Of a stretch of DNA of 64,000 bases, positions 1 through 54,743 are shown piece after piece (positions within the stretch are counted from its first letter, which is position 1; every line of letters starts with the position of its first letter). Both the position numbers and the translations under genes were made by a program. Under the pieces are notes generated by a model that saw only the letters and a program-made list of their open reading frames with translations, did no database searches and had not been told where the DNA came from. The DNA is from Escherichia coli (GTDB lineage: Bacteria > Pseudomonadota > Gammaproteobacteria > Enterobacterales > Enterobacteriaceae): NCBI RefSeq assembly GCF_044647545.1, contig NZ_CP172818.1. One strand, given 5' to 3'.

Positions 1-325
1 AAAAATTTTCTTCCTGCATCAAGAAAAATATTATCTTACAATTTGGGCCAAATAAATTTAGAAATCGTGACAAGGCAAATGAATTAATTAGAATCTTAAT
101 TTCACAAAACAAAATATTTATATCTTCATGGGGTAAAACAAAAATAATAAACATAACTCATTGTGTTTTTTGATTTTAATGACAATCTAAAAGGACTTAA
201 TTTAAGAGTAAAAACAAACTCTAAACCCAGTTCGGATAAAAGCTTGTCATCTTGATAGGTAATATATAGGTACATAGACACATCAGAACGATCACTTACT
301 CCAATATCATTGGCCAGGATACTAT

Positions 326-952
326 ATGACATACGATAGTGAATTCGGATCACATGTATCCCTATATCGGGATAGAATCAAACAGGTTATTGATGACTCC
401 CTAAACGAACATCTTAACTCAATGATTCTACGTGTTGATCTGCATGACCCAATTGATACAGAAAATATGGATAACCCATTCTTTCAACCCAGGGTTGACT
501 CTGGTGCTATATCTCGCTTTACCAGTGCGTTAAAAGCAAAGCTTAAACATGATAAGCATATTAAAACTCAACGGAAAGACTGGCCTGATAGTCGACATTC
601 CACTTTACGTTACGCATGGGTCAGAGAATATACCAAAAATAGAAAGCGGCATTACCATTTGATACTGTGTTTCAATCAGGATGCTTATTATCATTTAGGT
701 GATTACGACTTAAACCGTAACACGTTACGTACAATGATAACGACAGCTTGGTACAGTGCACTTGGCATCCCTATAGATAGCTCGGGGAAGTTAGTTAATT
801 ACCCGCCAAATGGCAAATACCTTCTCAATCGTAAAAGGGACAACTTTGAGCAGACTTATAGCGATTTGATGAATAGGGTGGATTACATGACCAAAGTAAG
901 GACTAAAATAGTCGGTGACGGAGACCGTAATTTCGGCTGCAGTCGCGGGTAA
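326..952 (+). CDS. yfjJ: YagK/YfjJ-family prophage protein (inovirus Gp2-like), 208 aa
   Basis: Intact 208-aa ORF; ATG at 326 with AGGA 6 nt upstream; recognised as the YfjJ/YagK family from the protein sequence; lies in the prophage-like island. Confidence 0.6.
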   Translation: MTYDSEFGSHVSLYRDRIKQVIDDSLNEHLNSMILRVDLHDPIDTENMDNPFFQPRVDSGAISRFTSALKAKLKHDKHIKTQRKDWPDSRHSTLRYAWVREYTKNRKRHYHLILCFNQDAYYHLGDYDLNRNTLRTMITTAWYSALGIPIDSSGKLVNYPPNGKYLLNRKRDNFEQTYSDLMNRVDYMTKVRTKIVGDGDRNFGCSRG

Positions 953-970
953 TTTATTTTTTACAACAAT

Positions 971-1007
971 GGCCTTTCTTATGGCTGGAAAGGCCTGATT
1001 TGTTTGT
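971..1007 (+). terminator. Stem-loop plus T-tract after yfjJ
   Basis: GGCCTTTC...GAAAGGCC stem followed by TGATTTGTTTG, directly 3' of the yfjJ stop. Confidence 0.5.
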
Positions 1008-1129
1008 ATTAAGATATCGGTAATCTTTTGATGGTTGGAAGCCCGTCCTGGTAGACGACCTAGCCTACCGAAGATGTGAGTTATTCAAAAATGTCGCTTT
1101 CCCGCGTTCCGTAGACAAACGTACCTAAA

Positions 1130-3319
1130 TCAATGTCGTCTAATACCGAGCGCGCGCCTGATAAACATCTGATCAACGTACCCAATCGATCTACTCCAAA
1201 TGTCCTGAGTATCCCGAAGATACTGGCTCAACTCATCCACATCAGCCTCGTCGGAAAATTCCAGCAAGTCTACCAGTCGGTGTAACGTCTGAATGGGAAT
1301 GCCAATCTCTTCTAAGGCATTGACACCTGGTGGTAGATGGAAACTTTCGAACGCCAATTTGACATGTGTGTAATCGACTTTGCTGCGTATACCACGCTTT
1401 ACAGCGTGGTGTTTAACTACATCCTCCATCAAGCTGAGCACCTTAGGTAGGGTATAGCCGAAGGTATTGGTTATGAGCTTCAAATCATTGTTGAGGGCAA
1501 TGGAAAGAGTACGTTTCTCCCCTTCAGAAATCCACTGTCGTGCATAATCGATCTGATTTTTCAGATATTCCGAATAACTTTCAGCACTTAAATAGCCGGC
1601 AAGTTTTGCGATCATGACATCCGTAGGCTTAACAGGGACCCCATTGCGACTGAACGTATGGGGAACCAGTCTGGCAATGATCTTTGCAAAGGTCTTGAGG
1701 AAGTTTGTCGCGGGAGTCCAGTGAAACACTAACGAGGAAAATTCGTTATCGTCCATCATCTCGAACATGCTTTGCAGCATTTCGAACTGCTCGACACGGA
1801 AGTACGAATGCTTCTTCACAAGGTCGATGGAAACACGGTCGTTTATGAAAACCTCATCAAAGCGATCCTGTGAAAACTCGGACAAGTGGTCTGGTTGAAC
1901 GCTGGCTAACAGGTTGATTGGGGTATCAATGCCCTGAATACCGAGCGGAATATCCACCTCTTGATTGAGATTGTCTTCCGGGATTTCCTCCAGGCAAAAG
2001 ATTTTGCCGACGAAGTGAACGCCCATGCGCCCGGCGCGACCTTTGATGTTCCCATGGGTGAATTTGTCAATGCTGCGAGTTCCATCGCGGTTGTCGTAGA
2101 TCACAACGTTCTTAGCGATAGTGTTGACTCCTTCAATGATCGTGGAGGTGCAGAGCAAAAAGCGCAGTTTTCCAGCATTGAATTGGTCGGCAGTGTATTG
2201 CTGCAGTGCCCTCGGTAGCGCGCCAAAATGCAAGCCAATACCGTTTCTAAGGGCGACTGTGTAATCCCAGTCGGCATCGAACTCTTCGCTGACCCAGTCG
2301 ACATGGGGATTCTCAGTCGGAGTGCCATGCCCAAGCCTGATCAGCTCGCGCGCCACCAGGCCCGCAACAGTTGGTGACTTGCAATAAATGATCGTTGCGT
2401 CGACACATGCGTGCGCGATTTCCCCCAGCGCTTTGAGCTTGGCTTTGTCGTCATTCGCTTTGATGCCGAACGTCTTAACATCTAGCGCGACTGTATTGAA
2501 GTCGGTAGAAACGAAAGTATGCGGATATCCAAGTTTTTCGAGACCGCGAATGCTGTTAACGAACGGTCCCGTCAGGTAAAACTGCCTGGAGACCTTAAGC
2601 AGTTTGCTTAACGCAATGTTGAGCTCGATGACTCGTTCGTCTTGATGATCAATGTCCCCGCTTTTCAGTTGTCGGAACGCCAACTTGTAAAACTCGTCAA
2701 TGACGAAGAGGTCAATGTCGACGATGTCGTCACGCTCGTTCACTCGCTCCTGAGTTAACACATAAACAGCCTGATCGGAATGGCACACTTGGGAACTGTG
2801 GTGGATGATCTGATATCGGTCACCGAATCGCTCTTGCAGTCGGCGACGGGTTTCGTCGGCAAGAGCCACGGTTGGAACAACCAGAACAAGCCGTTTCAAA
2901 GTTCCCATGCCGAGCAATGAATCGACGATTGCACTTTTGCCCATGCTTGTAGGTGCACTCAGCACCACGTTTTGACCAGACTTGAGCAGATCGAATATGT
3001 GGAACTGCATTGAGTGGAAAACATAACCATCCGAGAATGGCGTCCGGTATAGCTCAAGCACCCTCAGGTCATCCGGTGTCAGGCTGGTGAACTCCTTTTT
3101 GAGATACGGGAACAAACCTGATTTTCTCACCATATTTTTCAAAATTGTGGTGTGCTCGGAAAACCGCTCGCGCGAATCGAGAGCTCGCACGATCAAGTCC
3201 CGTCCCAAGTCATACGAAACAGGGTTAGACAACAGCTTGTTAACCGCAAACAGATAATTGAACGATGAGAAGTCCTCACCCTGCAGGCTATGTTTCGCCT
3301 GTTCATAGATCTCTGTCAT
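1130..3319 (-). CDS. yfjK: SF2 DEAD/DEAH-box helicase, 729 aa (probable AbpB)
   Basis: 729-aa ORF; Walker A APTSMGKS, DExx-like VIDEF, helicase C-terminal motifs TSTIIEGVN and GRAGRMG visible in the translation; overlaps upstream yfjL by 4 bp. Confidence 0.85.
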   Translation of the reverse strand: MTEIYEQAKHSLQGEDFSSFNYLFAVNKLLSNPVSYDLGRDLIVRALDSRERFSEHTTILKNMVRKSGLFPYLKKEFTSLTPDDLRVLELYRTPFSDGYVFHSMQFHIFDLLKSGQNVVLSAPTSMGKSAIVDSLLGMGTLKRLVLVVPTVALADETRRRLQERFGDRYQIIHHSSQVCHSDQAVYVLTQERVNERDDIVDIDLFVIDEFYKLAFRQLKSGDIDHQDERVIELNIALSKLLKVSRQFYLTGPFVNSIRGLEKLGYPHTFVSTDFNTVALDVKTFGIKANDDKAKLKALGEIAHACVDATIIYCKSPTVAGLVARELIRLGHGTPTENPHVDWVSEEFDADWDYTVALRNGIGLHFGALPRALQQYTADQFNAGKLRFLLCTSTIIEGVNTIAKNVVIYDNRDGTRSIDKFTHGNIKGRAGRMGVHFVGKIFCLEEIPEDNLNQEVDIPLGIQGIDTPINLLASVQPDHLSEFSQDRFDEVFINDRVSIDLVKKHSYFRVEQFEMLQSMFEMMDDNEFSSLVFHWTPATNFLKTFAKIIARLVPHTFSRNGVPVKPTDVMIAKLAGYLSAESYSEYLKNQIDYARQWISEGEKRTLSIALNNDLKLITNTFGYTLPKVLSLMEDVVKHHAVKRGIRSKVDYTHVKLAFESFHLPPGVNALEEIGIPIQTLHRLVDLLEFSDEADVDELSQYLRDTQDIWSRSIGYVDQMFIRRALGIRRH

Positions 3320-4932
3320 ACGACCTCTCTCACCTTCTCATCAACTAATTGGGTTAACCGCTCAAGACTCGGGGCTGGATAAATGAATACGTGGATGCAA
3401 AGATTCGCAAACGGCGAATCCTCGATGAGGTCAGCCGCGAATTTTTCGAACAGCACCGCTGTTTCTTTCTCCAGGTCATCCTCGAACCCCGGCGTTTCAG
3501 GCTCGGTTAGTAGATTAGAGTCGTAGCCCACGAACAGAACAAACGTGAAACGATCGAGGTGAGCATCGAAAGGTTGGCTGCCATCAAGAATTTCGTCAAT
3601 GTCGTGGCGAAGCAGGTAGTTATCGTCTTTAATGTCGAGGATTTTTTTGCGCGCGGTATCGATGCAATCCGAAATGTCCTCGTACAACTGATCCCGTATC
3701 TCCGGCAATCTGACGGCAATGTTAATATCAGTCACCAACTCGCTGAAGCCAATCCAAAGCTGATCACCTTCTGGATCGCGGCGAACGATATGCACGTTTT
3801 CAAGAATTTTTTCGGCCCCTGCTTTTTCCACGTATAGCATGCAAGGAATAGGCTGGCTTTCGTGGTGCTGCCGGATCGTTGCGTGCAACAGCACTCGACC
3901 CAAAAATTCGCTGACGTCATGGAGCGATTTGAAGACGGAATTCTTTAGTCGTTCTCGCTTTTCAATGAATGTCAGTTTATGAATATCAGACATTTCTTTT
4001 GGTCGGAGAAAAACCTCATCCAACCATTGACAGACGTTATCCGCGATGTGCTTGTAGCGGTATTTCTTAAGTGAGTACTGCTGATGTAGAACCTGGCCTT
4101 TACGCTTAGCGCAGACCGAAGCCATAGGCGCTCTAAATGGCGTAAGGATGTGGGGTAAGTCCCGTTTGACGTAGATTTTGCGGCCTGACCGAGATTGGTC
4201 ATCTTCGACACGCTGCTTGAACCACTCAAGTAGGTCTGGTCGTAAGTAGGACTTGTCATCAGCACTGTGAATGCGTCGAGAATGCTCGCCCTTGCGCGTC
4301 ACAGTATCAAGGATGCGGCACCAAATGTCTTCGGCGACGGTTTCGGAACTGAGAATGACCCCATGTAGATCTTGGGAGGCCAGCCGTATGTTCTTGATCC
4401 CTAGAAGTTCCAGTTCGCGCAGGGATGAAAACACTTCCCATGTAGCCGCATCGATCCAATCTGAAACGCTTATACCTGAGTCTGTTAAAAAATTGTCTGT
4501 GCGTTTGTTGAGGTCATCGATGAGTTCCTGTCGACCTGGCTTATCTAGTCGGGCGTTTGGGCTGATCGTCAAGTACTCAAGGGTTTTGTTGACCTTTTCC
4601 TCTGTGACGATGGAGTACCTACGTCCAAGGGACAGGTCAGACTCACACTGCATTGATTTGTGCAAAATTGAACTGCAGGGGATCGTCTTTTTATCAGCAC
4701 CTTTTGAATTCTGAACGATGTCCGAAATGTTCCAACGTGTTTTGCCGGTGCTTTTTACCTGAACGAAGTCGATGTATCCATCAGATACAATGTCGATATC
4801 GTCTGTGACCTCGCAGCGCACACTGCGGATAGTCTTGTCACGAAGCATTCGGGTGACATGGTAAGCGGCTACGCAGTCCTGAAATAAGAAACCGTGCTTG
4901 GCGGCTACTCCGCCTGAATCGTTCGACTCCAT
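3316..4932 (-). CDS. yfjL: Helicase-partner protein, 538 aa (probable AbpA)
   Basis: 538-aa ORF whose stop overlaps the yfjK start (3316-3319), indicating translational coupling; length and sequence match my recollection of YfjL. Confidence 0.8.
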   Translation of the reverse strand: MESNDSGGVAAKHGFLFQDCVAAYHVTRMLRDKTIRSVRCEVTDDIDIVSDGYIDFVQVKSTGKTRWNISDIVQNSKGADKKTIPCSSILHKSMQCESDLSLGRRYSIVTEEKVNKTLEYLTISPNARLDKPGRQELIDDLNKRTDNFLTDSGISVSDWIDAATWEVFSSLRELELLGIKNIRLASQDLHGVILSSETVAEDIWCRILDTVTRKGEHSRRIHSADDKSYLRPDLLEWFKQRVEDDQSRSGRKIYVKRDLPHILTPFRAPMASVCAKRKGQVLHQQYSLKKYRYKHIADNVCQWLDEVFLRPKEMSDIHKLTFIEKRERLKNSVFKSLHDVSEFLGRVLLHATIRQHHESQPIPCMLYVEKAGAEKILENVHIVRRDPEGDQLWIGFSELVTDINIAVRLPEIRDQLYEDISDCIDTARKKILDIKDDNYLLRHDIDEILDGSQPFDAHLDRFTFVLFVGYDSNLLTEPETPGFEDDLEKETAVLFEKFAADLIEDSPFANLCIHVFIYPAPSLERLTQLVDEKVREVV

Positions 4933-5190
4933 TTAGACATCCGTGACAATTTTGCGAAAATTAAGGAGATGTTATGACACAGTCCAATCGGATCACTGCA
5001 TCATCACCAGTGATCTAAATACTTCACAGCCATTCTCGGTCGCAGGTATCAAGCTTTTCAGGATTCCACAAATATTGTAACCCTGACGTCTAATTTGGTT
5101 ATATAACATACTGCCCCAACTAACGTAAGGTAGGCACAGCCTTAATCAAGGTTTTGGTTTTCAAATAGTTCAGAGCTGAGACCGCCAACC

Positions 5191-5238
5191 GCACTATGGC
5201 ACTATGGCACTATGGCACTATGGCACTATGGCACTATG
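5191..5238. repeat. Tandem repeat (GCACTATG) x6
   Basis: Six perfect head-to-tail copies of an 8-bp unit read directly, between yfjM and the yfjL upstream region. Confidence 0.95.
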
Positions 5239-5291
5239 GCACCGCCAGCGATTGTAATCACACTTGATATTATAAAACACAGTTGCACGCA

Positions 5292-5555
5292 TTATTTCCT
5301 GGTTGGTAGGGTCATATCTCGATGCTCTTTGAGCAATGTCAACATCGCGTGTTCATGGCTTTCTATATTGTTGATGCCTTGCCCATCCGGACCCCACTCC
5401 TTATAGCTCATCATGATGGCTTGTTTTGGGCTCTCTGCTCGTTCTGTTTCGACGTAGAATTTTTTCTTGTCTGCTGGCGAATAATTACTAAGTATCGAGT
5501 TGCTGCTTGGTGAGATCAGGAAGAGGTTACCGAAACGATGGACATCATCCCCCAT
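5292..5555 (-). CDS. yfjM: Small prophage protein, 87 aa
   Basis: 87-aa ORF in the expected position between yfjL and rnlA; length matches YfjM; coding status not independently supported. Confidence 0.5.
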
Positions 5556-5696
5556 TTTGTGGACTGCCCCCCCGGTAGACGATCCTGCCCTATAGTTGGA
5601 GTGCCCCCTATTCAGGTGGCTAAATTTAGCAAATCAATACACTTCAGGGGGGTATTATTGTAGAGTTTCCCCATATGTTTCTATGGGATCCAGGAA

Positions 5697-6770
5697 ATGA
5701 CAATCAGGAGTTACAAAAACTTAAATCTGGTCAGGGCAAATATCGAGACTGAATCCAGACAATTCATTGAAAATAAAAACTATTCAATCCAATCAATTGG
5801 TCCTATGCCAGGGTCAAGGGCTGGGCTTCGGGTCGTATTTACCAGACCAGGGGTTAACTTGGCAACTGTGGACATTTTTTATAACGGGGACGGTTCGACT
5901 ACAATTCAATATCTCACTGGAGCCAATCGTTCTCTGGGCCAAGAGTTAGCGGATCATCTTTTTGAAACCATCAATCCTGCTGAATTTGAGCAGGTAAATA
6001 TGGTACTGCAAGGATTTGTAGAGACAAGCGTTCTACCTGTACTTGAGCTATCAGCAGATGAATCGCATATAGAGTTCAGAGAACACTCTCGTAACGCTCA
6101 TACCGTAGTGTGGAAAATTATTTCCACCAGCTATCAGGACGAATTGACTGTGAGCCTGCATATCACAACAGGTAAGCTCCAGATTCAGGGCCGACCGCTG
6201 TCATGTTACAGAGTTTTCACGTTTAACTTGGCAGCCCTGCTTGATTTACAGGGTTTGGAGAAAGTGCTAATCCGCCAGGAGGATGGTAAAGCTAATATTG
6301 TTCAACAGGAGGTTGCCCGCACTTACTTGCAGACTGTAATGGCCGATGCTTACCCGCATCTCCACGTGACTGCCGAAAAATTGCTCGTTTCAGGGCTATG
6401 TGTTAAACTCGCCGCCCCTGATTTGCCTGACTACTGTATGTTACTTTATCCTGAACTACGCACCATTGAAGGTGTCTTAAAAAGTAAGATGAGTGGGTTA
6501 GGCATGCCAGTACAGCAGCCGGCAGGTTTTGGAACTTACTTTGATAAACCTGCTGCTCATTACATTCTGAAACCGCAATTTGCAGCTACTCTTAGACCGG
6601 AACAGATTAACATCATCAGCACAGCCTATACTTTTTTTAATGTGGAACGTCATTCTCTGTTCCACATGGAAACTGTGGTCGATGCCAGCCGTATGATTTC
6701 TGATATGGCCCGGTTGATGGGTAAAGCCACTAGAGCGTGGGGAATAATCAAGGACTTATATATTGTTTGA
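5697..6770 (+). CDS. rnlA: RnlA toxin (RNase LS), 357 aa
   Basis: 357-aa ORF recognised as RnlA; followed by an overlapping small antitoxin gene. Confidence 0.9.
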   Translation: MTIRSYKNLNLVRANIETESRQFIENKNYSIQSIGPMPGSRAGLRVVFTRPGVNLATVDIFYNGDGSTTIQYLTGANRSLGQELADHLFETINPAEFEQVNMVLQGFVETSVLPVLELSADESHIEFREHSRNAHTVVWKIISTSYQDELTVSLHITTGKLQIQGRPLSCYRVFTFNLAALLDLQGLEKVLIRQEDGKANIVQQEVARTYLQTVMADAYPHLHVTAEKLLVSGLCVKLAAPDLPDYCMLLYPELRTIEGVLKSKMSGLGMPVQQPAGFGTYFDKPAAHYILKPQFAATLRPEQINIISTAYTFFNVERHSLFHMETVVDASRMISDMARLMGKATRAWGIIKDLYIV

Positions 6771-7134
6771 AATCACCGGAATTAACGTCTCAGGGGCTCT
6801 AAAAGCTGTCGTTATGGCGACCGGCTTCGAGAACCCTTTGTCCTCAGTTAATGAAATTGAGACGAAACTTTCTGCCCTACTGGGTAGTGAGACCACTGGT
6901 GAAATCCTTTTTGACCTCTTGTGCGCTAACGGTCCAGAGTGGAACCGCTTCGTTACGCTGGAAATGAAATATGGCCGGATCATGCTGGATACGGCCAAAA
7001 TTATTGATGAGCAGGACGTTCCGACACATATCCTGAGCAAACTGACTTTTACTTTACGTAATCATCCTGAGTACCTAGAAGCCTCTGTTTTGTCTCCCGA
7101 TGATGTACGCCAAGTCCTGTCAATGGATTTTTGA
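6763..7134 (+). CDS. rnlB: RnlB antitoxin, 123 aa
   Basis: 123-aa ORF overlapping the rnlA 3' end by 8 bp, the typical type II toxin-antitoxin arrangement. Confidence 0.85.
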   Translation: MFEITGINVSGALKAVVMATGFENPLSSVNEIETKLSALLGSETTGEILFDLLCANGPEWNRFVTLEMKYGRIMLDTAKIIDEQDVPTHILSKLTFTLRNHPEYLEASVLSPDDVRQVLSMDF

Positions 7135-7435
7135 AACTCTTCTTTCTAAACGAACCAGTATAGAATTCGCCCTTTTGGCATGATATTAACTTGTCCAATA
7201 TGATCAAATAGCATTAACCCCCCCTCACAACGTCCTGCATAGGGAACACGTTTTCCCCTGTGCACCCACGACTAAATTTCCCCCCCTTTAAACTTCTCAA
7301 TAATGTCACCAATTTTCTGGAAATCCTATGATGCCTTTCCCGGTAAATGGTGCTGTGAGTTCAGAAAGATTCTGCAATCTATGTGCATTGAAAAAATCTT
7401 CAGATAGATATCATTCTCCTGAACAATCCGATGAA

Positions 7436-7470
7436 CGGCAGAACCTCGCGGTTCTGCCGTTTTTGTTTTA
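7436..7470 (+). terminator. Terminator-like hairpin in the yfjP leader
   Basis: CGGCAGAAC...GTTCTGCCG stem followed by TTTTTGTTTTA, about 20 nt upstream of the yfjP RBS; a diverged copy recurs at 15269-15300. Confidence 0.5.
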
Positions 7471-7488
7471 CTTTTCAGAGGAGTGGTG

Positions 7489-8352
7489 ATGAAAAATTTT
7501 GAAGTTCTGCAGCCACTACAGAACTCCCTTTCCGGTCTACCGCTATGGGTATCTGAACGTATATTGCAGCAGATAAATCAGTTAACCCACTACGAGCCAG
7601 TGATCGGCATCATGGGTAAAACTGGGGCGGGAAAGAGTAGCCTTTGCAATGCCCTGTTTGCCGGTGAAGTATCGCCGGTCAGCGATGTAGCGGCCTGTAC
7701 ACGTGATCCTTTACGCTTTCGCCTGCAGATTGGAGAACACTTTATGACCATCGTGGATCTGCCCGGCGTGGGCGAAAGTGGCGTTCGCGATACCGAGTAT
7801 GCTGCGCTGTACCGCGAACAACTTCCCCGGCTCGACCTGATTCTGTGGCTGATTAAGGCTGATGATCGGGCACTGGCGACTGATGAGCATTTTTACCGTC
7901 AGGTGATTGGCGAAGCATACCGGCATAAGATGCTGTTTGTTATCAGCCAGTCAGACAAAGCTGAACCCACCAGCGGTGGAAATATCCTTTCCACAGAGCA
8001 GAAACAAAATATCAGCCGCAAAATCTGCCTGCTGCATGAGCTATTCCAGCCCGTGCATCCGGTGTGTGCCGTGTCGGTTCGCCTGCAGTGGGGACTAAGG
8101 GTGATGGCAGAGCGGATGATTAAGTGTCTGCCGCGTGAGGCCAGCAGCCCGGTAGTAGCGCTACTGCAACATCCCTTTCGAACAACGGTAGCCCGGGAGC
8201 AGGCACGTGACGATTTCGGTGAAACCGTAGGTGCCATACTCGATACGGTAAGCACCTTTCCCCTTATTCCCGCCCCGGTGCGGACCATTATTCAGGCCGT
8301 GCGTTCCTCGGTGGTGTCAGTGGCCCGCGCTGTCTGGGATTTCTTCTTCTGA
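7489..8352 (+). CDS. yfjP: Prophage GTPase, 287 aa
   Basis: G1/Walker A GKTGAGKSS and G3 DLPGVG motifs; ATG at 7489 preceded by GAGGAG (the listed ORF begins 6 nt earlier at an in-frame GTG). Confidence 0.85.
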   Translation: MKNFEVLQPLQNSLSGLPLWVSERILQQINQLTHYEPVIGIMGKTGAGKSSLCNALFAGEVSPVSDVAACTRDPLRFRLQIGEHFMTIVDLPGVGESGVRDTEYAALYREQLPRLDLILWLIKADDRALATDEHFYRQVIGEAYRHKMLFVISQSDKAEPTSGGNILSTEQKQNISRKICLLHELFQPVHPVCAVSVRLQWGLRVMAERMIKCLPREASSPVVALLQHPFRTTVAREQARDDFGETVGAILDTVSTFPLIPAPVRTIIQAVRSSVVSVARAVWDFFF

Positions 8353-8443
8353 GTGTTTAATTCTGCCCTATTATTCTCCGAGCCCTGTCGCAAGTGCGGC
8401 AGGGCTTTCTTTATTTGTTTTACCCATACTGAGGAGTCTGCTT

Positions 8444-9263
8444 ATGACCCGTCTGGCTTCGCGCTTTGGCGCTGCAAACCAGATACGCCGTGACCGTCCG
8501 CTGACACATGAAGAACTGATACGCCATGTACCCAGTATTTTTGGGGAAGACCGGCACATCCCGCAGTGAACGGTATGCGTACATTCCCACCATTACCGTC
8601 CTGGAAAATCTGCAGCGGGAAGGCTTTCAGCCGTTCTTCGCCTGCCAGACCCGTGTGCGCGACCCGGGCCGCCGGGGATACACAAAACACATGCTGCGTC
8701 TGCGGCGGGCCGGAGAGATAAACGGAGAACATGTCCCTGAAATTATTCTGCTCAACTCTCATGACGGTACCTCCAGCTACCAGATGCTGCCGGGTTACTT
8801 CAGGTTCGTCTGCCAGAACGGGTGCGTCTGTGGCCAGTCTCTGGGGGAAGTGCGTGTTCCACACCGGGGAAATGTAGTGGAGAAAGTTATCGAAGGGGCT
8901 TACGAGGTGGTGGGCGTGTTTGACCGGATAGAGGAGAAGCGTGATGCCATGCAGTCGCTGGTCCTGCCGCCACCGGCACGCCAGGCGCTGGCACAGGCGG
9001 CACTGACTTACCGTTATGGTGACGAACATCAGCCCGTCACCACCGCCGACATTCTGACGCCGCGACGCCGGGAGGATTACGGTAAGGACCTGTGGAGCGC
9101 ATATCAGACCATCCAGGAGAATATGCTGAAAGGCGGGATTTCCGGTCGCAGTGCCAGAGGAAAACGTATCCATACCCGGGCCATTCACAGCATTGATACC
9201 GACATTAAGCTCAATCGCGCATTGTGGGTGATGGCAGAAACACTGCTCACGCAACTGCAGTAG
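8444..9263 (+). pseudogene. yfjQ: DUF932-family protein, frameshifted near codon 41
   Basis: ATG at 8444 with GAGGAG RBS encodes MTRLASRFGAAN... for 41 codons, then TGA at 8567-8569; the remaining 245 aa continues in the +1 frame; total span 820 nt is not a multiple of 3. Confidence 0.65.
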
Positions 9264-9479
9264 ACGTTTCATGTTGCCACGTTGTTAATATCGGACACCA
9301 CCTGTCCGCATCGCTATGTGCTCGTGTGCCTCAATCCCCCGGTTATAGCTTTTAACCCCCGTTACATCTGGCTTTTGCAGAAATAAAAAATAGTTTCTGC
9401 GTTGTCCATACCCTGTCCGCCCCCCTCTTTAAAGTAATCACATCATTTTCAGTCAGTTAACTTTCCTGGAGAATCTCTC

Positions 9480-10181
9480 ATGACACAGGCAGAACGCCGC
9501 CATGACCGGCTGGCTGTCAGGCTGTCACTGATAATCAGCCGTCTGGTTGCGGGTGAAACGTTGAGCGTGCGCAAACTGGCGGCTGAGTTTGGCGTGTCAG
9601 TGCGCACGCTGCGGCGTGATTTTCGTGAACGACTGATGTATCTGGACCTGGAGTATCAGTCCGGATACTGCCGCTTACGCACTGCTGGCAGTGAGATGCA
9701 GATGGTGCCCGACGTGCTTATCTTTGCCCACCGCAGCGGGCTGGCCGGGCTTTTTCCCGGCCTTGACCGCCGTCTGGTGAATGCACTGCTGATGTGCGAT
9801 GAGTCTCCCTGCGTGATAGCACCAGCCAATCCGGTTCCTTCGCCTTCAGGAGCATTGTCTTTCTGGAGACTGATTCAGGCCATTACCGGGCGCAGGCGGG
9901 TGACGCTGATTGCAGAGGGGCGACGCTGTGAGCGCCTAGCTCCCTGCCGGTTACTCATCCACCAGCAGACCTGGTATCTGGTGGCTGAACACGAAGGGCA
10001 TATCGCCGTATTCACACTTGATGAAATCCATCTGATTCAGCCTTTGCAGGAGACTTTTCGCCGCAATGACAGTCTGTGTCGCCTGGTTGAAGACCCGGTC
10101 TTCATTCAGGCCTTACCCCATTTTCGCTTTATCCAGCATTCACTGCTTACGTTTGTTCCGGCCGACAGCCCACCGGAATAG
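9480..10181 (+). CDS. yfjR: HTH plus WYL-domain transcriptional regulator, 233 aa
   Basis: N-terminal HTH-like segment ([21 protein letters not shown]) and a WYL motif ([11 protein letters not shown]) visible in the translation. Confidence 0.85.
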
Positions 10182-10221
10182 CGCAGGCGTTGTTATCAAC
10201 CCGGCAACATGGAGGAGCCCA

Positions 10222-10458
10222 GTGCCCGTTATTGCCATTATCGCCATTGTTATCATCGTCATCATTCTGAACAAAACCGGAGTGTCCGACAGCCTCACGG
10301 CCCTGACACTTGCAACCGTTGCCGCACTACTGACGGGAGGTGGTGCAGCCGGTGCTGCCAGTGTCGCGCTGACGCCGTTCGTCGGCGTGCCGGTGGGTAT
10401 TTTTGTGGGAATTTATGTCTTTGCCAAAGTGGTTCGTCTGATTTCAGGGAAAAAATAA
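10222..10458 (+). CDS. ypjK: Small hydrophobic membrane protein, about 78 aa
   Basis: GTG start at 10222 preceded by GGAGGA; two hydrophobic segments; stop overlaps the yfjS start (TAATG). Confidence 0.55.
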   Translation: MPVIAIIAIVIIVIILNKTGVSDSLTALTLATVAALLTGGGAAGAASVALTPFVGVPVGIFVGIYVFAKVVRLISGKK

Positions 10459-10901
10459 TGAAACGTAAAACACTACCTCTGCTGGCGCTGGTTGCCACCT
10501 CTCTGTTTCTGAGCGCCTGCGATGACAGGAGTGATGACCTCAAAGCTATCAGTAAATTTAAGGACCTCACGCCCCCGCGCTTCAGCGATGTGGTCAGCCG
10601 TCAGGATGATGTCAGCGAAGAATGGTCACAGGTTGGCTTCTCATCCGGTCTCACCCTGCAGGTCTTACGTACCCGTGAGTCGCCCGATGGTTGCGAGGGT
10701 GGCAGTTACTACTATCTGGTAGATATGGAGGAGAAAACCGTCCAGCCGCTGATGAATGCGCTTTGTATTGCCGACAATATCAAACTGGAATACCACGAAG
10801 TTACGGACCCGTATACGAAAGAAAAATACTTCGAATATTCCCATGACGGCAAACTGATGGGACGGCTGCTGATACCGTCAAACCCTGATAACCGGGAATA
10901 A
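10458..10901 (+). CDS. yfjS: Lipoprotein, 147 aa
   Basis: Signal peptide with lipobox LSAC; ATG at 10458; the longer listed ORF from 10209 is an upstream extension in the same frame. Confidence 0.8.
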   Translation: MKRKTLPLLALVATSLFLSACDDRSDDLKAISKFKDLTPPRFSDVVSRQDDVSEEWSQVGFSSGLTLQVLRTRESPDGCEGGSYYYLVDMEEKTVQPLMNALCIADNIKLEYHEVTDPYTKEKYFEYSHDGKLMGRLLIPSNPDNRE

Positions 10902-10924
10902 AAACAACGAGAAAGGAGACATAA

Positions 10925-11392
10925 ATGAAAATACGTTCACTAAGCCGGTTTGTACTGGCAAGTACAATGTTCGCCAGCTTTACAGCCTCTGCGGTCCCCG
11001 GACTCTGGCAACAGGGGTACGGTCAGGGCAATGCGGAATACAGTGTGACGGATGCCAGCGGAAAGATGTTTACCATCAACTGCACGGGAAATCCGGACCA
11101 GAACGGTATTTACCAGCACTCGGTTTTTCTGATCCTCGCCGGGGATAAAACGGTCAGCTCGCATGATGACAGTACCGGCATCACAGTGGTGATGGACCAT
11201 AAGCAATATGCCATTCCCTCAACCCTTGGCTGGCGTAACGGAGATAATGCCTGGTTCAGCTTCATCATGGATATCCGTAAGGCCCGGCAGTTCGACGTCT
11301 ACGTCAATGACCAGAAAGTTGGATCGTTTAACCCTGATGTTCGGAATGCACAAAAGGTCCTGCCAACATTAGCGGACTGCACTAACGACTGA
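10925..11392 (+). CDS. yfjT: Secreted/periplasmic protein, 155 aa
   Basis: Intact ORF with N-terminal signal peptide; RBS GGAGA upstream. Confidence 0.8.
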   Translation: MKIRSLSRFVLASTMFASFTASAVPGLWQQGYGQGNAEYSVTDASGKMFTINCTGNPDQNGIYQHSVFLILAGDKTVSSHDDSTGITVVMDHKQYAIPSTLGWRNGDNAWFSFIMDIRKARQFDVYVNDQKVGSFNPDVRNAQKVLPTLADCTND

Positions 11393-11787
11393 CGGCTGCG
11401 CCTTCCCTACCATAACAACCCTGATTGCCTCCGGCGGTCGGGGGTTTCTTTTTTCTCCTTAATCTCCAGAGGTAGGCCACGTACTTTCGAACGATGAGCG
11501 CAGTGGTCAGTTTTTTTCAGATATATTTATCTTTTTTTGGCTGTAAGCTCCGCTGTGAGCGCAGGCTGTGTGAAAACTCCTGATCACTTCTTGGTCTAAG
11601 CGATGGTTTCATATGATCAACCATTCTTGATAAACCCATGCGACGAACTGACTTTTTCATTAAAATTAGAAATATACGAATGAATACTGCGGATACCGAC
11701 ATGGCCAATCACATTCAAGGACAAGGCAGGCACCAGGTGACATTACTCCCTGATGCACTGGATGATTTTGTCACTGAAGATAACTTA

Positions 11788-11931
11788 AGTAAGTTTAATC
11801 AGTTCATCACGGGTCGGTGGCATATCGAGATAATTAATTATTGTCGGTTCGTTGCCGTTGTTATGAAGCATCTCCAGCGTGTTGCGTGAGGTGCCACAGG
11901 CCGGGTTGTGATAGATGGTAATGTTGCTCAT
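11788..11931 (-). pseudogene. Arsenate reductase ArsC N-terminal fragment (47 codons)
   Basis: Reverse-strand translation MSNITIYHNPACGTSRNTLEM... matches the ArsC N-terminus and then hits a premature stop. Confidence 0.7.
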
Positions 11932-11943
11932 ATCAGTATCTAA

Positions 11944-12935
11944 TTACAAAGTGACAGAGAGCCGCCACGCCAGCGCGGCCAGAGTGACAAACAGCACCGG
12001 CACAGTCATGACAATGCCGGTACGGAAGTAATATCCCCAAGTGATTGTCATATTTTTCTGGGCAAGCACATGCAGCCACAGCAGAGTTGCCAGACTGCCA
12101 ATCGGGGTGATTTTCGGGCCTAAATCACAGCCAATCACATTGGCATAAATCATTGCCTCTTTGACGACGCCAGTCGCCGTACTCCCGTCAATCGACAGCG
12201 CACCAATCAGCACCGTCGGCATATTGTTCATCACTGATGAGAGAAATGCCGTCAAGAAGCCGGTGCCGAACGTCGCTGCCCATAACCCCTTGTCTGCCAG
12301 CAGATTCAGCACGCCAGACAGGTACTCCGTGAACCCTGCATTGCGCAGGCCATAGACCACGATGTACATGCCCAGTGAGAAAATAACGATCTGCCATGGC
12401 GCACCGCGCAGGACTTTTCCGGTGTTGATCGAATGACCTCTTTTCGCCACCACAAACAGCACTGCTGCGCCAGCGGCCGCTATCGCACTGACCAGGATTC
12501 CCTGCGGCTCCAGAAAGAAGAAACCGACAAGCAGCAATAACAGGACAATCCAGCCCGCCCTGAAGGTTGCCAGATCCTTGATCGCACTGGCAGGCGTCTT
12601 CAGCAGCGAAACTTAATACGTTGCCGGAATAACTCTGCGAAAGAAGAGATACAGCATAATCAGCGTGGCCGCAATCGCTGCCGCATCCACGGAGATCATA
12701 ACGGAGGCGTACTGCGCAAAGCTCAGACCGAAGAAGTCCGCCGAGACGATATTCACCAGGTTAGAAACAATGAGCGGCAGGCTGGCCGTATCTGCAATAA
12801 ATCCTGCAGCCATGACAAAGGCCAGTGTCGTGCCCTGGCTGAACCCAGTGCGATCAGCATCGCAATCACAATCGGCGTCAGGATCAGCGCGGCGCCGTCA
12901 TTGGCAAACAACGCATCAACAGCGGCACCGAGCAA
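11944..12935 (-). pseudogene. Arsenite efflux pump ArsB, N-terminally truncated and frameshifted
   Basis: Three reverse-strand ORF fragments (197, 66 and 60 aa) in different frames, all ArsB-like membrane sequence; the N-terminal roughly 100 aa is missing where AT-rich DNA begins. Confidence 0.8.
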
Positions 12936-13094
12936 GACTTTCCAGGTGAACAGCGCTCTAGGTAGGAACTTTGTCGTTGATAGAGTCTTCAGCCATCAAC
13001 ACTGTATCGAGTAATGAAATTGGTTGCTAGAAAGTCGATGATTTGTTGCGTATGATTAAAAATCAACCTTAAAGGCTTTATACATGGATTTGCT

Positions 13095-14798
13095 ATGGCT
13101 TTTGTATCAGAAAGAGAAATTGTAAGAAAGATATTTAGCAAAAAAATTGACTTTACGATCTTGGCATTTTTCTATATTTCCTCTATTTTTTTTCTTCTTT
13201 GTAGTGGCGTTCTCTTTCAATATTTTACCGCTGCCTTCACAAAAGGTAATTGTTATGAATGCTCAATGAAACTTGATTACATAAAACAATTTTATTTTTC
13301 ACTGGAAACCGCATGGTACCTCATATCTGCTGTTGCAGTATTTATTGCATCTGTTTTTATACAGCATAGAATTAAAGCTTATTTAACATTATTAGCTATT
13401 ACATGGATTGTACTAACAATAACAGATGTGGCGTTAATACACGCCTTAGACAATATAGCCATGAATAATATTTTGTTAAATATACTATATAATCTTTTTG
13501 GGGCGATTTTATTGTCACTGTTTATGTGTTTATCAAATTCCCTCCTTTTCCACCTTAATAAGATAAAACATATTCCAATGATTTTATCGGCAATGATTCC
13601 ATTAGTTTCCGCAATAATAATAGCCATACTCATAACCGCTGTTATATATTTATTGTTTGCCCGGCAGGCGGTAGAGATTGAGATGGATATATCTGAAGGT
13701 TCAGACATCGCATATGTAGGTGTAAAAGATAATGAGGAATCATTTGGGTTTTTAAATGATAAAAAAACAGACACACCAACGTATCTGGATGTAATCAAAA
13801 ATGGTAGTTTGATATATAATGATACACAGGGTTTAAGTGGTGCTGATATTTATATTGTCTCCGGTTGTTATGCCCTTCCAGATTTACTTCGCAATGTACC
13901 GCTTGATGCTAAAAAATCTTTTCTGAATGTAAAAAAGCTAGAAATCACACAGAAACTTCCAATGATGGGGTTCATACAAGGTGAATCCGCTGATGTGATG
14001 CCTAAAGCAGCATCCAGGTTAAGTTTGAGCAAGCAAGATGATAAATTTATGCTAGCCTCAAGTGTTACTGACTCTCAAATAAAATTTAAATCAAACAATG
14101 CACAATTGATGGTTGCTTTCGCATTTATGCCAATAACAACGAATGGTATTTTACATGATTATACATACGATATAATAATAAATGATAAAAAATATAAAAT
14201 TGAAAATCATGTTGCACCTCTATCTAGGCTTGATAAAAATAAGAAGATGAAGTGTGAATACCAGCAAATATCGGATTTAACAAATACGTATAACATTAAT
14301 GCAAATTACTTAACGGGTTTTTTACTTGTCCTAAAACCAGATGATATTATTAATTACAACAATAGCCCTTCCGTACTACTCAAGACTGATTTTGCGTTCT
14401 ATAAAAAAACATACCAGAAGCTTGATAAAATATATGATGACATAAGCAATGGAAAATTATCTTCACTGAGAGCAACAGGTATCTCCCAGTTTAGTATCAA
14501 CGGGAAACATTTGTCGTTAAGGCCAGAATCGGAGATTATTATTTCTGAAGGGAGTTTGTATGGACTAGTTAATAAAAGCAAAAAAATCAAAATATATGGC
14601 ACAGCAGATCTTGTTTTTGTTGATAACAAGATAATGAACCTTCGTAAAATAACTTATTTGCAATCTAAGCTAGAAATTTTTGGTTCTTCTATTATGGATA
14701 TATTAAAGTATATATTTGGTTTAGGTCTGCTAGCAATTTCTATAAAATTCATTCATTCTTACTTTAAGAATGATGTGAATGAAAATTTATTCTTGTAA
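13095..14798 (+). CDS. yfjW: AT-rich inner-membrane protein, 567 aa, function unknown
   Basis: 567-aa ORF; strongly hydrophobic N-terminal about 190 aa followed by a hydrophilic Asn/Lys-rich domain; very low GC. Confidence 0.75.
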   Translation: MAFVSEREIVRKIFSKKIDFTILAFFYISSIFFLLCSGVLFQYFTAAFTKGNCYECSMKLDYIKQFYFSLETAWYLISAVAVFIASVFIQHRIKAYLTLLAITWIVLTITDVALIHALDNIAMNNILLNILYNLFGAILLSLFMCLSNSLLFHLNKIKHIPMILSAMIPLVSAIIIAILITAVIYLLFARQAVEIEMDISEGSDIAYVGVKDNEESFGFLNDKKTDTPTYLDVIKNGSLIYNDTQGLSGADIYIVSGCYALPDLLRNVPLDAKKSFLNVKKLEITQKLPMMGFIQGESADVMPKAASRLSLSKQDDKFMLASSVTDSQIKFKSNNAQLMVAFAFMPITTNGILHDYTYDIIINDKKYKIENHVAPLSRLDKNKKMKCEYQQISDLTNTYNINANYLTGFLLVLKPDDIINYNNSPSVLLKTDFAFYKKTYQKLDKIYDDISNGKLSSLRATGISQFSINGKHLSLRPESEIIISEGSLYGLVNKSKKIKIYGTADLVFVDNKIMNLRKITYLQSKLEIFGSSIMDILKYIFGLGLLAISIKFIHSYFKNDVNENLFL

Positions 14799-15268
14799 CG
14801 CATTTGGCTCCAATTGGAGCCTTTTTATGACTATTTATTAAAATATCCTAAGTTAAGCCTGTTTTTAAAGCAGGCTTGAGCGTGAAGCGGACACTCATAC
14901 CTGCTTTAAAGTGGCGTTTTTGTCGTTACCCATACCTATATTTTCTGTTGTTTAACTGCCAGAACTGAGCGGTTGAAAAGCCAGAAATATGCCGAGCCAG
15001 CGGCATGGAAGCGCCAGCAGCTGTTGAATGGAGTACTGTAGGCAAATGGTGCCGTAACCGGCTTTCGTACTGAAAGGTTCTGTCTATCCCATCCCTTCTC
15101 TTGTATCTAACATTTAGTTGTGAATAGCTACTGTAAATGCCCCTACAAAATGAACCATTATTTTTAGAGGGCGTCTGGCACTCCAACTTCCGCTTTTGGC
15201 ACAGAACGGCCTATCAGCAATATAAAAGCATTCAGATATATATCATTTCTACAAACATACCCGATTAA

Positions 15269-15300
15269 CGGCAGAATCTCAGGATTCTGCCGCTTTTTTA
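15269..15300 (+). terminator. Terminator-like hairpin, second copy of the yfjP-type leader
   Basis: CGGCAGAATC...GATTCTGCCG stem plus T-run; flanks align with 7399-7492. Confidence 0.45.
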
Positions 15301-15321
15301 TTATTTTTCAGGGGAGTAGTA

Positions 15322-15695
15322 ATGAGCAACTCTGAAGGTTGGTAGTCATTTTAGCAAACGCTTTCTGGTCTGCCGCAGTGGGCATCGGCTGATTGCGTAG
15401 CAGGGCCACTGGTATCTGCCGGTATCACCGACATTAACATTGAAGACGACCAGGGCATTCACGTCCGCCTGATAGTTCGTGATGCCGAAGGTCGGATGGT
15501 TGGCGGGCATGGAACTTTGAACCGGACGCCGGTGAAGGTTTTAACCGCTATATCCACAGGTCAGGCATCCGCACCGACACCTTCCCCCGCTGACTCCGAA
15601 TCATTTACCAGCAACATTTCACCTTCCCAAACGCGCTTTATTACCTCATACGCCAGCCATCGCCGCTGGCGTTTTTTATTCACGGAGACATACCC
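15322..15695 (+). pseudogene. Degenerate remnant beginning with a yfjP-like N-terminus
   Basis: ATG after the duplicated leader gives MSNSEGW then stop; downstream frames retain ...QTLSGLPQW..., resembling YfjP residues 12-20, but no intact ORF. Confidence 0.4.
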
Positions 15696-16154
15696 ATGAC
15701 AACACAGACACAGTACGACCTCGTACCCGCTAACGGATCCGAATTTGAGTTGAGCGTAACGCAGGTACCCGATGAACAGCATATCCGCTTCTGGCCGCAG
15801 CACTTTGGCACCATCCCGCAGTGGATAACGCTGGAACCGCGCATTTTCGCCTGGATGGACCGCTTCTGTGATGAGTACTGCGGGGGTATCTGGTCCTTTT
15901 ACACGCTCAGCAATGGCGGAGCGTTTATGGCTCCTGATGCTGACGGTGACGATAAATGGCATTTGCTCAACGGCATGAATGGCAATGGTGCGGAAATGAG
16001 CGCGGAAGCCGCAGGTATCGCTGTCTGCCTGATTGAATATAGCCATCACGCCTGCCTCACCGAATGCGATGCCATGACGGAGCACTATTACCGCCTGCGG
16101 GATTACGCTCTGCAGCACCCTGAATCCAGCGCCATTATGCGCATTATTGATTAA
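15696..16154 (+). CDS. yfjX: Antirestriction protein (ArdB/KlcA-like), 152 aa
   Basis: 152-aa ORF recognised as YfjX-family antirestriction protein. Confidence 0.85.
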   Translation: MTTQTQYDLVPANGSEFELSVTQVPDEQHIRFWPQHFGTIPQWITLEPRIFAWMDRFCDEYCGGIWSFYTLSNGGAFMAPDADGDDKWHLLNGMNGNGAEMSAEAAGIAVCLIEYSHHACLTECDAMTEHYYRLRDYALQHPESSAIMRIID

Positions 16155-16162
16155 GGATACTC

Positions 16163-16645
16163 ATGATGGAACAGTCACTCATCCCACAGACACCGGTACT
16201 TCCACTGACCGCACAACGCACGGTAAAACGCGCCTTAACGCTGCTTGACCGACACCTGCGCGAAACAGGCGTGGCATTCACCTCCACTCAGGCTGCTCGT
16301 GACTGGCTGAAGCTGAAAATGGCGGGGCTGGAGCGTGAAGAATTTATGATGCTGTATCTGAACCAGCAGAACCAGTTGATTGCCCACGAAACCCTGTTTG
16401 CCGGTTCTATTAGCAGTACCGAGGTACATCCCCGTGAGGTGGTCAAACGCGCCCTGTATTTCAATGCAGCAGCAGTGATACTGGCGCATAACCACCCCTC
16501 CGGCGACACTACTCCCAGCCAGGCAGATAAGACTATAACGCAGCGTCTGGTGCAGGCGCTTCAGCTCGTTGATATCCGTGTCCCTGACCATCTGATTGTT
16601 GGTGGCAGGCAAATCTATTCGTTCGCAGAACACGGTCTGCTTTGA
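16163..16645 (+). CDS. yfjY: RadC-like JAB-domain protein, 160 aa
   Basis: JAB/MPN metal-binding motif HNHPSGD visible in the translation. Confidence 0.85.
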   Translation: MMEQSLIPQTPVLPLTAQRTVKRALTLLDRHLRETGVAFTSTQAARDWLKLKMAGLEREEFMMLYLNQQNQLIAHETLFAGSISSTEVHPREVVKRALYFNAAAVILAHNHPSGDTTPSQADKTITQRLVQALQLVDIRVPDHLIVGGRQIYSFAEHGLL

Positions 16646-47990: not shown

Positions 47991-48060
47991 TTATTCGGGC
48001 GGATAAGGCGTTTTTGCCTCATCCGCCGCTCTGTACACAATGCCTGATGCGACGCTGGTG
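47991..48060. repeat. REP-like palindromic elements after proX
   Basis: GGCGGATAAGGCG...GCCTCATCCGCC-type units. Confidence 0.5.
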
Positions 48061-48178
48061 CGTCTTATCATACCTACAAACCACACCGCACATTTCAACA
48101 ATCTATCTTTCATCCCATATTCATCAACATCCGCTATTATTGATTTCCAGCTTAATCATCACCTGATGAACAAAAATA

Positions 48179-54671: not shown

Positions 54672-54743
54672 GAAAGACGCGCATTTGTTATCATCATCCC
54701 TGAATTCAGAGATGAAATTTTGGCCACTCACGAGTGGCCTTTT
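54672..54743 (+). ncRNA. micA: MicA (SraD) small regulatory RNA
   Basis: GAAAGACGCGCATTTGTTATCATCATCCCTGAATTCAGAGATGAAATTTTGGCCACTCACGAGTGGCCTTTTT between luxS and gshA, ending in a terminator hairpin. Confidence 0.85.

Follow-up and report, generated by a model that had tools for sequence, protein, structure and literature searches.

Two overlapping genes in the stretch of Escherichia coli DNA analysed here (64,000 nucleotides; hereafter the window) were originally predicted to encode RnlA and RnlB, a known anti-phage toxin-antitoxin pair. Their position directly beside the helicase operon yfjLK was taken to make positions 1130–7134 a compact defence cluster. The locus raises the question of whether the pair is RnlAB itself or a relative, and whether the genes gathered around it constitute one defence system or several.

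The rnlA and rnlB genes and their products

The two open reading frames (ORFs) are as follows:
5697..6770, plus strand: rnlA, encoding RNase LS (the RnlA toxin), ATG start, 357 aa
6763..7134, plus strand: rnlB, encoding the RnlB antitoxin, TTG start, 123 aa, annotated at the same coordinates in RefSeq

According to the six-frame ORF list the genes share 8 nt. The TTG at 6763 is the sole start codon that the rnlB frame offers between the upstream stop (6745–6747) and the ATG at 6814, and a Shine-Dalgarno-like AAGGA lies 8 nt 5' of it. Neither ORF carries a disrupting mutation at the sequence level. Searches with phmmer against all PDB chains aligned RnlA without gaps to 6y2p_A/4i8o_A, with 357 of 357 residues identical (E-value 1.7e-239), and RnlB to 6y2p_C, also without gaps and with 123 of 123 residues identical (5.9e-78); the matches lie far beyond chance. 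The original prediction had placed an RnlA-RnlB pair at 5697–7134 and proposed comparison with the characterised proteins as its check, poor identity being what would speak against it. Both ORFs were found at exactly these coordinates and the identity is 100%.

All domain assignments agree with this identification. Four Pfam families were detected in RnlA, each above its gathering cut-off: RnlA_toxin_N (residues 6–88), RnlA_toxin (98–183), RnlA-toxin_DBD (203–325) and HEPN_RnaseLS (234–337). This corresponds to the three-domain architecture of the family, an NTD and an NRD followed by the C-terminal, Dmd-binding HEPN domain. RnlB matches RnlB_antitoxin (PF15933; 9e-29), also above the gathering threshold. 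The RnlA residues R255, E258, R318 and H323, found by mutagenesis to be essential for catalysis (PMC8266594), are all present, with R318-H-S-L-F-H323 forming the HEPN Rx4H motif, and none of the four varies across 14 aligned RnlA homologues of 38–76% identity. As in type II toxin-antitoxin systems, toxin and antitoxin ORFs are adjacent and overlapping, and the co-crystal 6Y2P holds both of the identical chains. The models of PADLOC-DB 2.0 and NCBIfam gave no match to either RnlA or RnlB, whereas Pfam detects the pair; this reflects the content of the libraries and is no evidence against the identification.

Compared with the RnlA-RnlB pair of E. coli K-12 (PDB 4I8O, 6Y2P–6Y2S, 7AEX), the window encodes identical proteins with the same 8-nt overlap, TTG start and CP4-57 context. 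There is no difference within 5697–7134, whereas the surrounding island departs from K-12 in yfjQ (8479–9260) and at 11572–11789. Judged by this identity, the locus is an already known system, RnlAB itself and not a relative of it. We put at roughly 97% the probability that 5697–7134 is the rnlA-rnlB type II toxin-antitoxin operon of the E. coli K-12 cryptic prophage CP4-57, present as an autonomous cassette beside AbpAB; no feature of the sequence speaks to the contrary.

Scans for transcription signals returned two pattern matches in and beyond the operon:
6423..6452, plus strand: candidate internal rnlB promoter, a weak sigma-70-like TTGCCT-18-TATCCT inside rnlA, from a relaxed scan
7433..7462, plus strand: strong terminator-like hairpin with a 13-bp stem and a T-run, from a consensus scan

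The sigma-70-like site, a match by pattern alone that carries no evidence of function, sits ~300 nt 5' of rnlB. The passages of PMC5535158 and PMC7167474 that cite Otsuka et al. 2010 describe a promoter for rnlB that is regulated independently and situated within rnlA, ~280 nt ahead of rnlB. Upstream of rnlA neither the consensus nor the relaxed scan yielded a convincing sigma-70 promoter. The hairpin, at which rnlAB transcription may end, is located 300 nt 3' of rnlB and immediately before the start of yfjP, outside the DNA that rnlAB loci have in common. The whole rnlB–yfjP spacer (7135–7482; 350 nt) likewise falls outside this conserved DNA; it contains a 53-aa ORF (7328..7489) and C-rich runs at 7220–7290.

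Activity, relatives and role of the RnlAB pair

The anti-phage activity ascribed to the locus in the original prediction is borne out by the literature on the identical proteins, from which the following course of events would apply to the pair in the window. RnlA would act as a three-domain HEPN endoribonuclease; both this activity and its toxicity in the absence of RnlB have been demonstrated experimentally for the identical RnlA (PMC8266594, PMC5308261). In uninfected cells RnlB would keep the toxin inactive, the structures showing a HEPN dimer whose canonical form is bound by RnlB, with the active site blocked (PMC8266594). RnlB is labile (PMC5308261), and its continuous synthesis would be needed, in part from its own promoter within rnlA. 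Upon the shut-off of host transcription by T-even phages RnlB would disappear, and free RnlA, stimulated by RNase HI, would degrade phage mRNAs late in infection and so abort phage growth; in T4 infection RnlB is indeed lost following the shut-off of host expression and free RnlA degrades most T4 mRNAs at the late stage, while RNase HI, besides stimulating free RnlA, aids the recruitment of RnlB (PMC5308261). Wild-type T4 would escape by means of Dmd, a replacement antitoxin that binds RnlA, the restriction being visible with dmd mutants only (PMC5308261, PMC8266594). The final element of this scheme concerns location: rnlAB is an autonomous cassette of ~1.48 kb, which the island carries in its defence slot beside the independent AbpAB (Hachiman-variant) nuclease-helicase. 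Whereas the preceding steps come from literature experiments on these exact proteins, this last one alone derives from the present analysis. Since the window is not plain reference K-12, with its recombination patches (see below), the RNase HI, Lon and ClpXP background of the host strain is assumed. The gene order, with the toxin first, is of the 'reverse' type (PMC7167474; also PMC5535158), and both papers also give the CP4-57 location.

RnlA relatives were collected from the protein database; among the proteins sharing short exact words with the query there were 173. Sequence identity to RnlA was 73–76% in Proteus, Morganella and Providencia, ~53–61% in Vibrio and Shewanella, and ~40% in Pseudomonas and others; no relative was found in deposited phage genomes. 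The gene context was inspected for four relatives:
Proteus mirabilis (L003–L005): RnlB-domain gene directly downstream with the same 8-nt overlap; integrase nearby; no abpAB
Pseudomonas aeruginosa (L006–L008): RnlB-domain gene directly downstream; integrase in L006 and L007; no abpAB
Vibrio alginolyticus (L009): RnlB-domain gene directly downstream; integrase nearby; no abpAB
Metagenome protein of 78% identity (L013/L014): RnlB-domain gene directly downstream with the same 8-nt overlap; AlpA-type gene in L013; no abpAB

The toxin-then-antitoxin order is kept in all four, which amounts to five further taxa or contigs. Like RnlAB, the pairs from Proteus, Morganella, Providencia, Vibrio, Shewanella and Pseudomonas comprise a toxin of ~357 aa with the four Pfam domains and invariant catalytic residues, followed directly by an RnlB-like gene. 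They differ from it in their sequence (38–78% identity) and in that they do not adjoin abpAB; all are found on integrative elements, and we found no experimental characterisation of any of them. One of the P. aeruginosa pairs (L006) occupies the distal end of an int/HTH_17/DUF3987 island. The closest distinct system that has been characterised is LsoA-LsoB from plasmid pOSAK1 of E. coli O157:H7 (PDB 5HY3). It resembles RnlAB in that a HEPN endoribonuclease toxin precedes its antitoxin, and in acting against T4 and being inhibited by T4 Dmd (PMC5308261). However, LsoA is only ~20% identical to RnlA, over residues 66–340, and LsoAB resides on small mobilizable plasmids, whereas RnlAB is part of a chromosomal prophage.

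Within E. coli, rnlAB DNA is present in 362 of 5426 complete genomes (RefSeq annotation rnlA/rnlB). All copies are chromosomal and at least 99% identical, and among the records listed the carriers are mostly K-12 or laboratory derivatives. This distribution bears on the view that RnlA is primarily a housekeeping mRNA-decay enzyme of E. coli (RNase LS) with RnlB as its regulator. The introduction of PMC8266594 does state that RnlA regulates endogenous gene expression post-transcriptionally, notably the synthesis of adenylate cyclase. However, ~93% of the complete E. coli genomes lack rnlAB, which is therefore not core, the carriers are largely K-12 or laboratory-derived with near-identical copies, and the pair is prophage cargo with relatives of 76–78% identity in other genera. 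We have rejected a housekeeping role on account of this absence and regard it as highly improbable. Somewhat more can be said for rnlAB being chiefly an addiction or stabilisation module that retains the CP4-57 island or its cargo region, with phage defence as a side effect, since at every locus examined the pair is part of an integrative element or borders one, beside an integrase or AlpA-type gene, and an association with mobile DNA is general among type II toxin-antitoxin systems (PMC7167474). Yet the documented phenotype of these exact genes is the exclusion of T4 dmd mutants, and the dedicated inhibitor Dmd encoded by T4 implies selection by phage (PMC5308261, PMC8266594). We consider addiction unlikely to be the chief role, bearing in mind that addiction and defence are not mutually exclusive.

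The abpAB genes and the limits of the rnlAB cassette

The helicase operon yfjLK was found next to rnlAB, where it had been expected, and is flanked by the probable remains of another gene:
1130..3319, minus strand: abpB (yfjK), a Ski2-like DEAD/DEAH helicase and the HamB partner of AbpA, with Pfam DEAD and Helicase_C domains
3316..4932, minus strand: abpA (yfjL), a Cap4-type nuclease domain fused to HamA (DUF1837)
5292..5555, minus strand: yfjM, 87 aa, with Pfam GmrSD_C (GmrSD-type, DUF1524)

The overlap between abpB and abpA is 4 nt, and RefSeq names the latter 'anti-bacteriophage protein AbpA' and the former abpB. AbpA scores with Pfam Cap4_nuclease (1e-55) and HamA (4e-41). PADLOC assigns AbpA to HamA1 (2.8e-266) and AbpB to HamB1 (4.2e-220), and the two proteins are full-length, identical matches to the cryo-EM entry PDB 8zue_A/8zue_B. 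A HamA nuclease-family protein and a HamB Ski2-like helicase are thus encoded in one operon, the arrangement of Hachiman/AbpAB systems, and AbpA is the effector of this AbpAB/Hachiman-variant defence system. The activity of AbpAB against phages is experimentally established (PMC10732053, PMC11914072, PMC12278908), it is activated by T4 Gp32 or DNA damage (PMC10732053), and the CP4-57 copy is the exact subject of PMC11914072. Whether AbpAB should be called Hachiman proper or a Hachiman variant is disputed (PMC10732053 versus PMC12278908). Mechanistically it is unrelated to RnlAB: AbpAB pairs a DNA nuclease with a helicase and responds to phage SSB or DNA damage, whereas in RnlAB an RNase is set free when its antitoxin decays (PMC10732053, PMC12278908).

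The product of yfjM covers only positions 77–126 of the 138-position GmrSD_C profile and is probably a remnant, namely the C-terminal domain of a GmrSD-type (type IV) restriction endonuclease, which makes the gene a probable decayed third defence gene. No full-length ancestor of yfjM was found, all relatives retrieved being fragments of 47–100 aa. The gene accompanies abpAB in Tenebrionibacter and in a metagenome contig, with DNA identity of 80% against 94–97% for abpB and abpA; its N-terminus spans the module breakpoint described below. The N-terminus of the Tenebrionibacter copy differs, and its reading frame stops earlier. In another metagenome contig (L012) a related fragment of 78 aa adjoins tniQ and a Cas_Csy2-like gene, a locus that may be the end of a CRISPR-associated transposon. 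A 78-aa ORF downstream of rnlB in contig L013 was tested for similarity to yfjM and is not yfjM-like. A perfect tandem octamer repeat (GCACTATG) in 6.5 copies occupies 5191–5242, upstream of abpA in the space that separates it from yfjM. The homologous locus of Tenebrionibacter has only ~1.5 copies, and this is therefore a variable-number repeat in a putative abpA control region.

With AbpAB, the GmrSD remnant and RnlAB gathered within 6 kb, the region has the composition of a defence island. As a description of gene content, the compact defence cluster proposed for 1130–7134 holds: both AbpAB and RnlAB are anti-phage in the literature, and the GmrSD remnant lies between them. Comparison of the window with fetched loci by blastn divides the cluster as follows:
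5658..7134, plus strand: mobile rnlAB cassette, the DNA common to rnlAB loci of other taxa
5521..5657, no strand assigned: junction that separates the rnlAB cassette from the abpB-abpA-yfjM' module, matching neither set of relatives

The cassette reaches from a point 39 nt 5' of the rnlA start codon to the stop codon of rnlB, and it is over this span alone that the window matches the P. mirabilis loci and metagenome contigs L013/L014, at 76–78% identity. The other module, 1115–5520, takes in abpB, abpA and the greater part of yfjM. It shares 93% identity with contig L011, from Tenebrionibacter intestinalis, and with contig L010, from a metagenome; for the encoded proteins the figures are 98% (AbpA) and 95% (AbpB). 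The alignment to Tenebrionibacter breaks at ~5520, inside yfjM. In place of rnlAB, both contigs carry genes for a DUF4391 protein, a UvrD-like helicase, an N6/N4 methyltransferase and a ResIII/RE_endonuc protein. The junction at 5521–5657 must hold the rnlA promoter region.

As judged from these alignments, 1130–7134 is not one functional unit; it is two independently mobile modules juxtaposed in a defence-cargo slot, because each module occurs elsewhere without the other. That rnlAB and abpAB, together with yfjM, form one integrated and co-regulated defence system might be suggested by their adjacency and divergent orientation around a short region (4933–5696), by their equal counts in E. coli (362 genomes each) and by the action of both upon T4. 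The equal counts, however, reflect clonal K-12 descent because all copies are at least 99% identical. Furthermore, rnlAB occurs without abpAB in Proteus, Vibrio, Pseudomonas and metagenome contigs, abpB-abpA-yfjM' at 93% DNA identity adjoins a methyltransferase/ResIII cluster in Tenebrionibacter, and in the literature each of AbpAB and RnlAB is active alone. Given that each module stands alone elsewhere, we have rejected a single integrated system, to which we would assign a very low probability. A broader reading treats the yfjJ–yfjP stretch of CP4-57-type islands as a dedicated slot for defence cargo, its cassettes being exchanged at a breakpoint that recurs within yfjM (~5520), and adds that RnlAB, responding to transcription shut-off, and AbpAB, responding to phage SSB or DNA damage, are layered or synergistic by way of the shared control region 4933–5696. 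The slot and the breakpoint are the observed part of this reading; taken as a whole, with its synergy, it is quite improbable.

The CP4-57 island and its defence-cargo slot

The two juxtaposed modules are carried by a familiar island. Positions 1–8478 of the window are base-for-base those of the E. coli K-12 CP4-57 prophage (strain GM4792), in which RefSeq gives the order intA, yfjH, alpA, yfjI, yfjJ, abpB, abpA, yfjM, rnlA, rnlB, yfjP, yfjQ, yfjR and onward. Islands with yfjJ homologues of 93–96% identity carry other cargo immediately after yfjJ. In E. coli 2273-PO3 the position contains what is left of a BREX system, brxL together with a pglZ pseudogene interrupted by IS5; in NCTC11121, at the same ssrA site, it holds a type I restriction-modification system accompanied by a DUF4268 gene. 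With four examples in all, the post-yfjJ slot of int-alpA-yfjI-yfjJ islands behaves as a hotspot for defence cargo.

Downstream of rnlAB the window departs from K-12. In yfjQ (DUF932; 8444–9265) the segment from 8479 to ~9260 is only ~75% identical to the K-12 gene; with the DUF932 gene found in other E. coli islands, such as that of SMS-3-5, it agrees at 99.5%. Read from the K-12 start codon at 8444, the frame stops after 41 codons; the longest ORF (8526..9263) encodes 245 aa, versus 273 aa in K-12. The exact K-12/yfjQ mosaic was found in no complete RefSeq E. coli genome, the best full-length match being 97.1% (strain BS-04). A second patch with ~16 substitutions relative to K-12 is located at 11572–11789, just to the left of ars-pseudogene remnants, and 9261–16398 is otherwise identical to K-12. 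On this pattern of identity, the window is best described as K-12 CP4-57 with a recombination or gene-conversion patch in yfjQ.

The genes beyond rnlAB (7483–10181: yfjP, yfjQ and yfjR) include a GTPase gene, yfjP, with weak similarity to PADLOC LeoBC/LeoA, and yfjR, whose product is a WYL-domain regulator (strong PADLOC WYL match, 5e-34). GTPase and WYL-type domains of this kind are often associated with defence loci. Elsewhere in the window we noted a tRNA gene with a CAT anticodon (25622–25697), a REP-derived naRNA4 barely at the Rfam threshold (47997–48074), the MicA sRNA (54672–54743), and four identical tRNA-Arg(ACG) genes with a tRNA-Ser(GCT) gene (57653–58244). The RNA gene content of the remaining window is unremarkable at this place in the K-12 chromosome.

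RnlAB has long been studied as a toxin-antitoxin system that demonstrably acts against phages and that is opposed by a dedicated phage counter-defence, Dmd. The genes in the window are the same as those of that work; all four defence proteins, RnlA, RnlB, AbpA and AbpB, already have solved structures. Some defence annotators would nevertheless miss rnlAB, the HMMs of PADLOC-DB 2.0 and NCBIfam including no model that detects it. What is mildly new here is contextual, namely the limits of the cassette, the breakpoint inside the GmrSD remnant and the variable defence cargo that follows yfjJ. Any treatment of 1130–7134 as a single system should allow for the juxtaposition of independently mobile cassettes.
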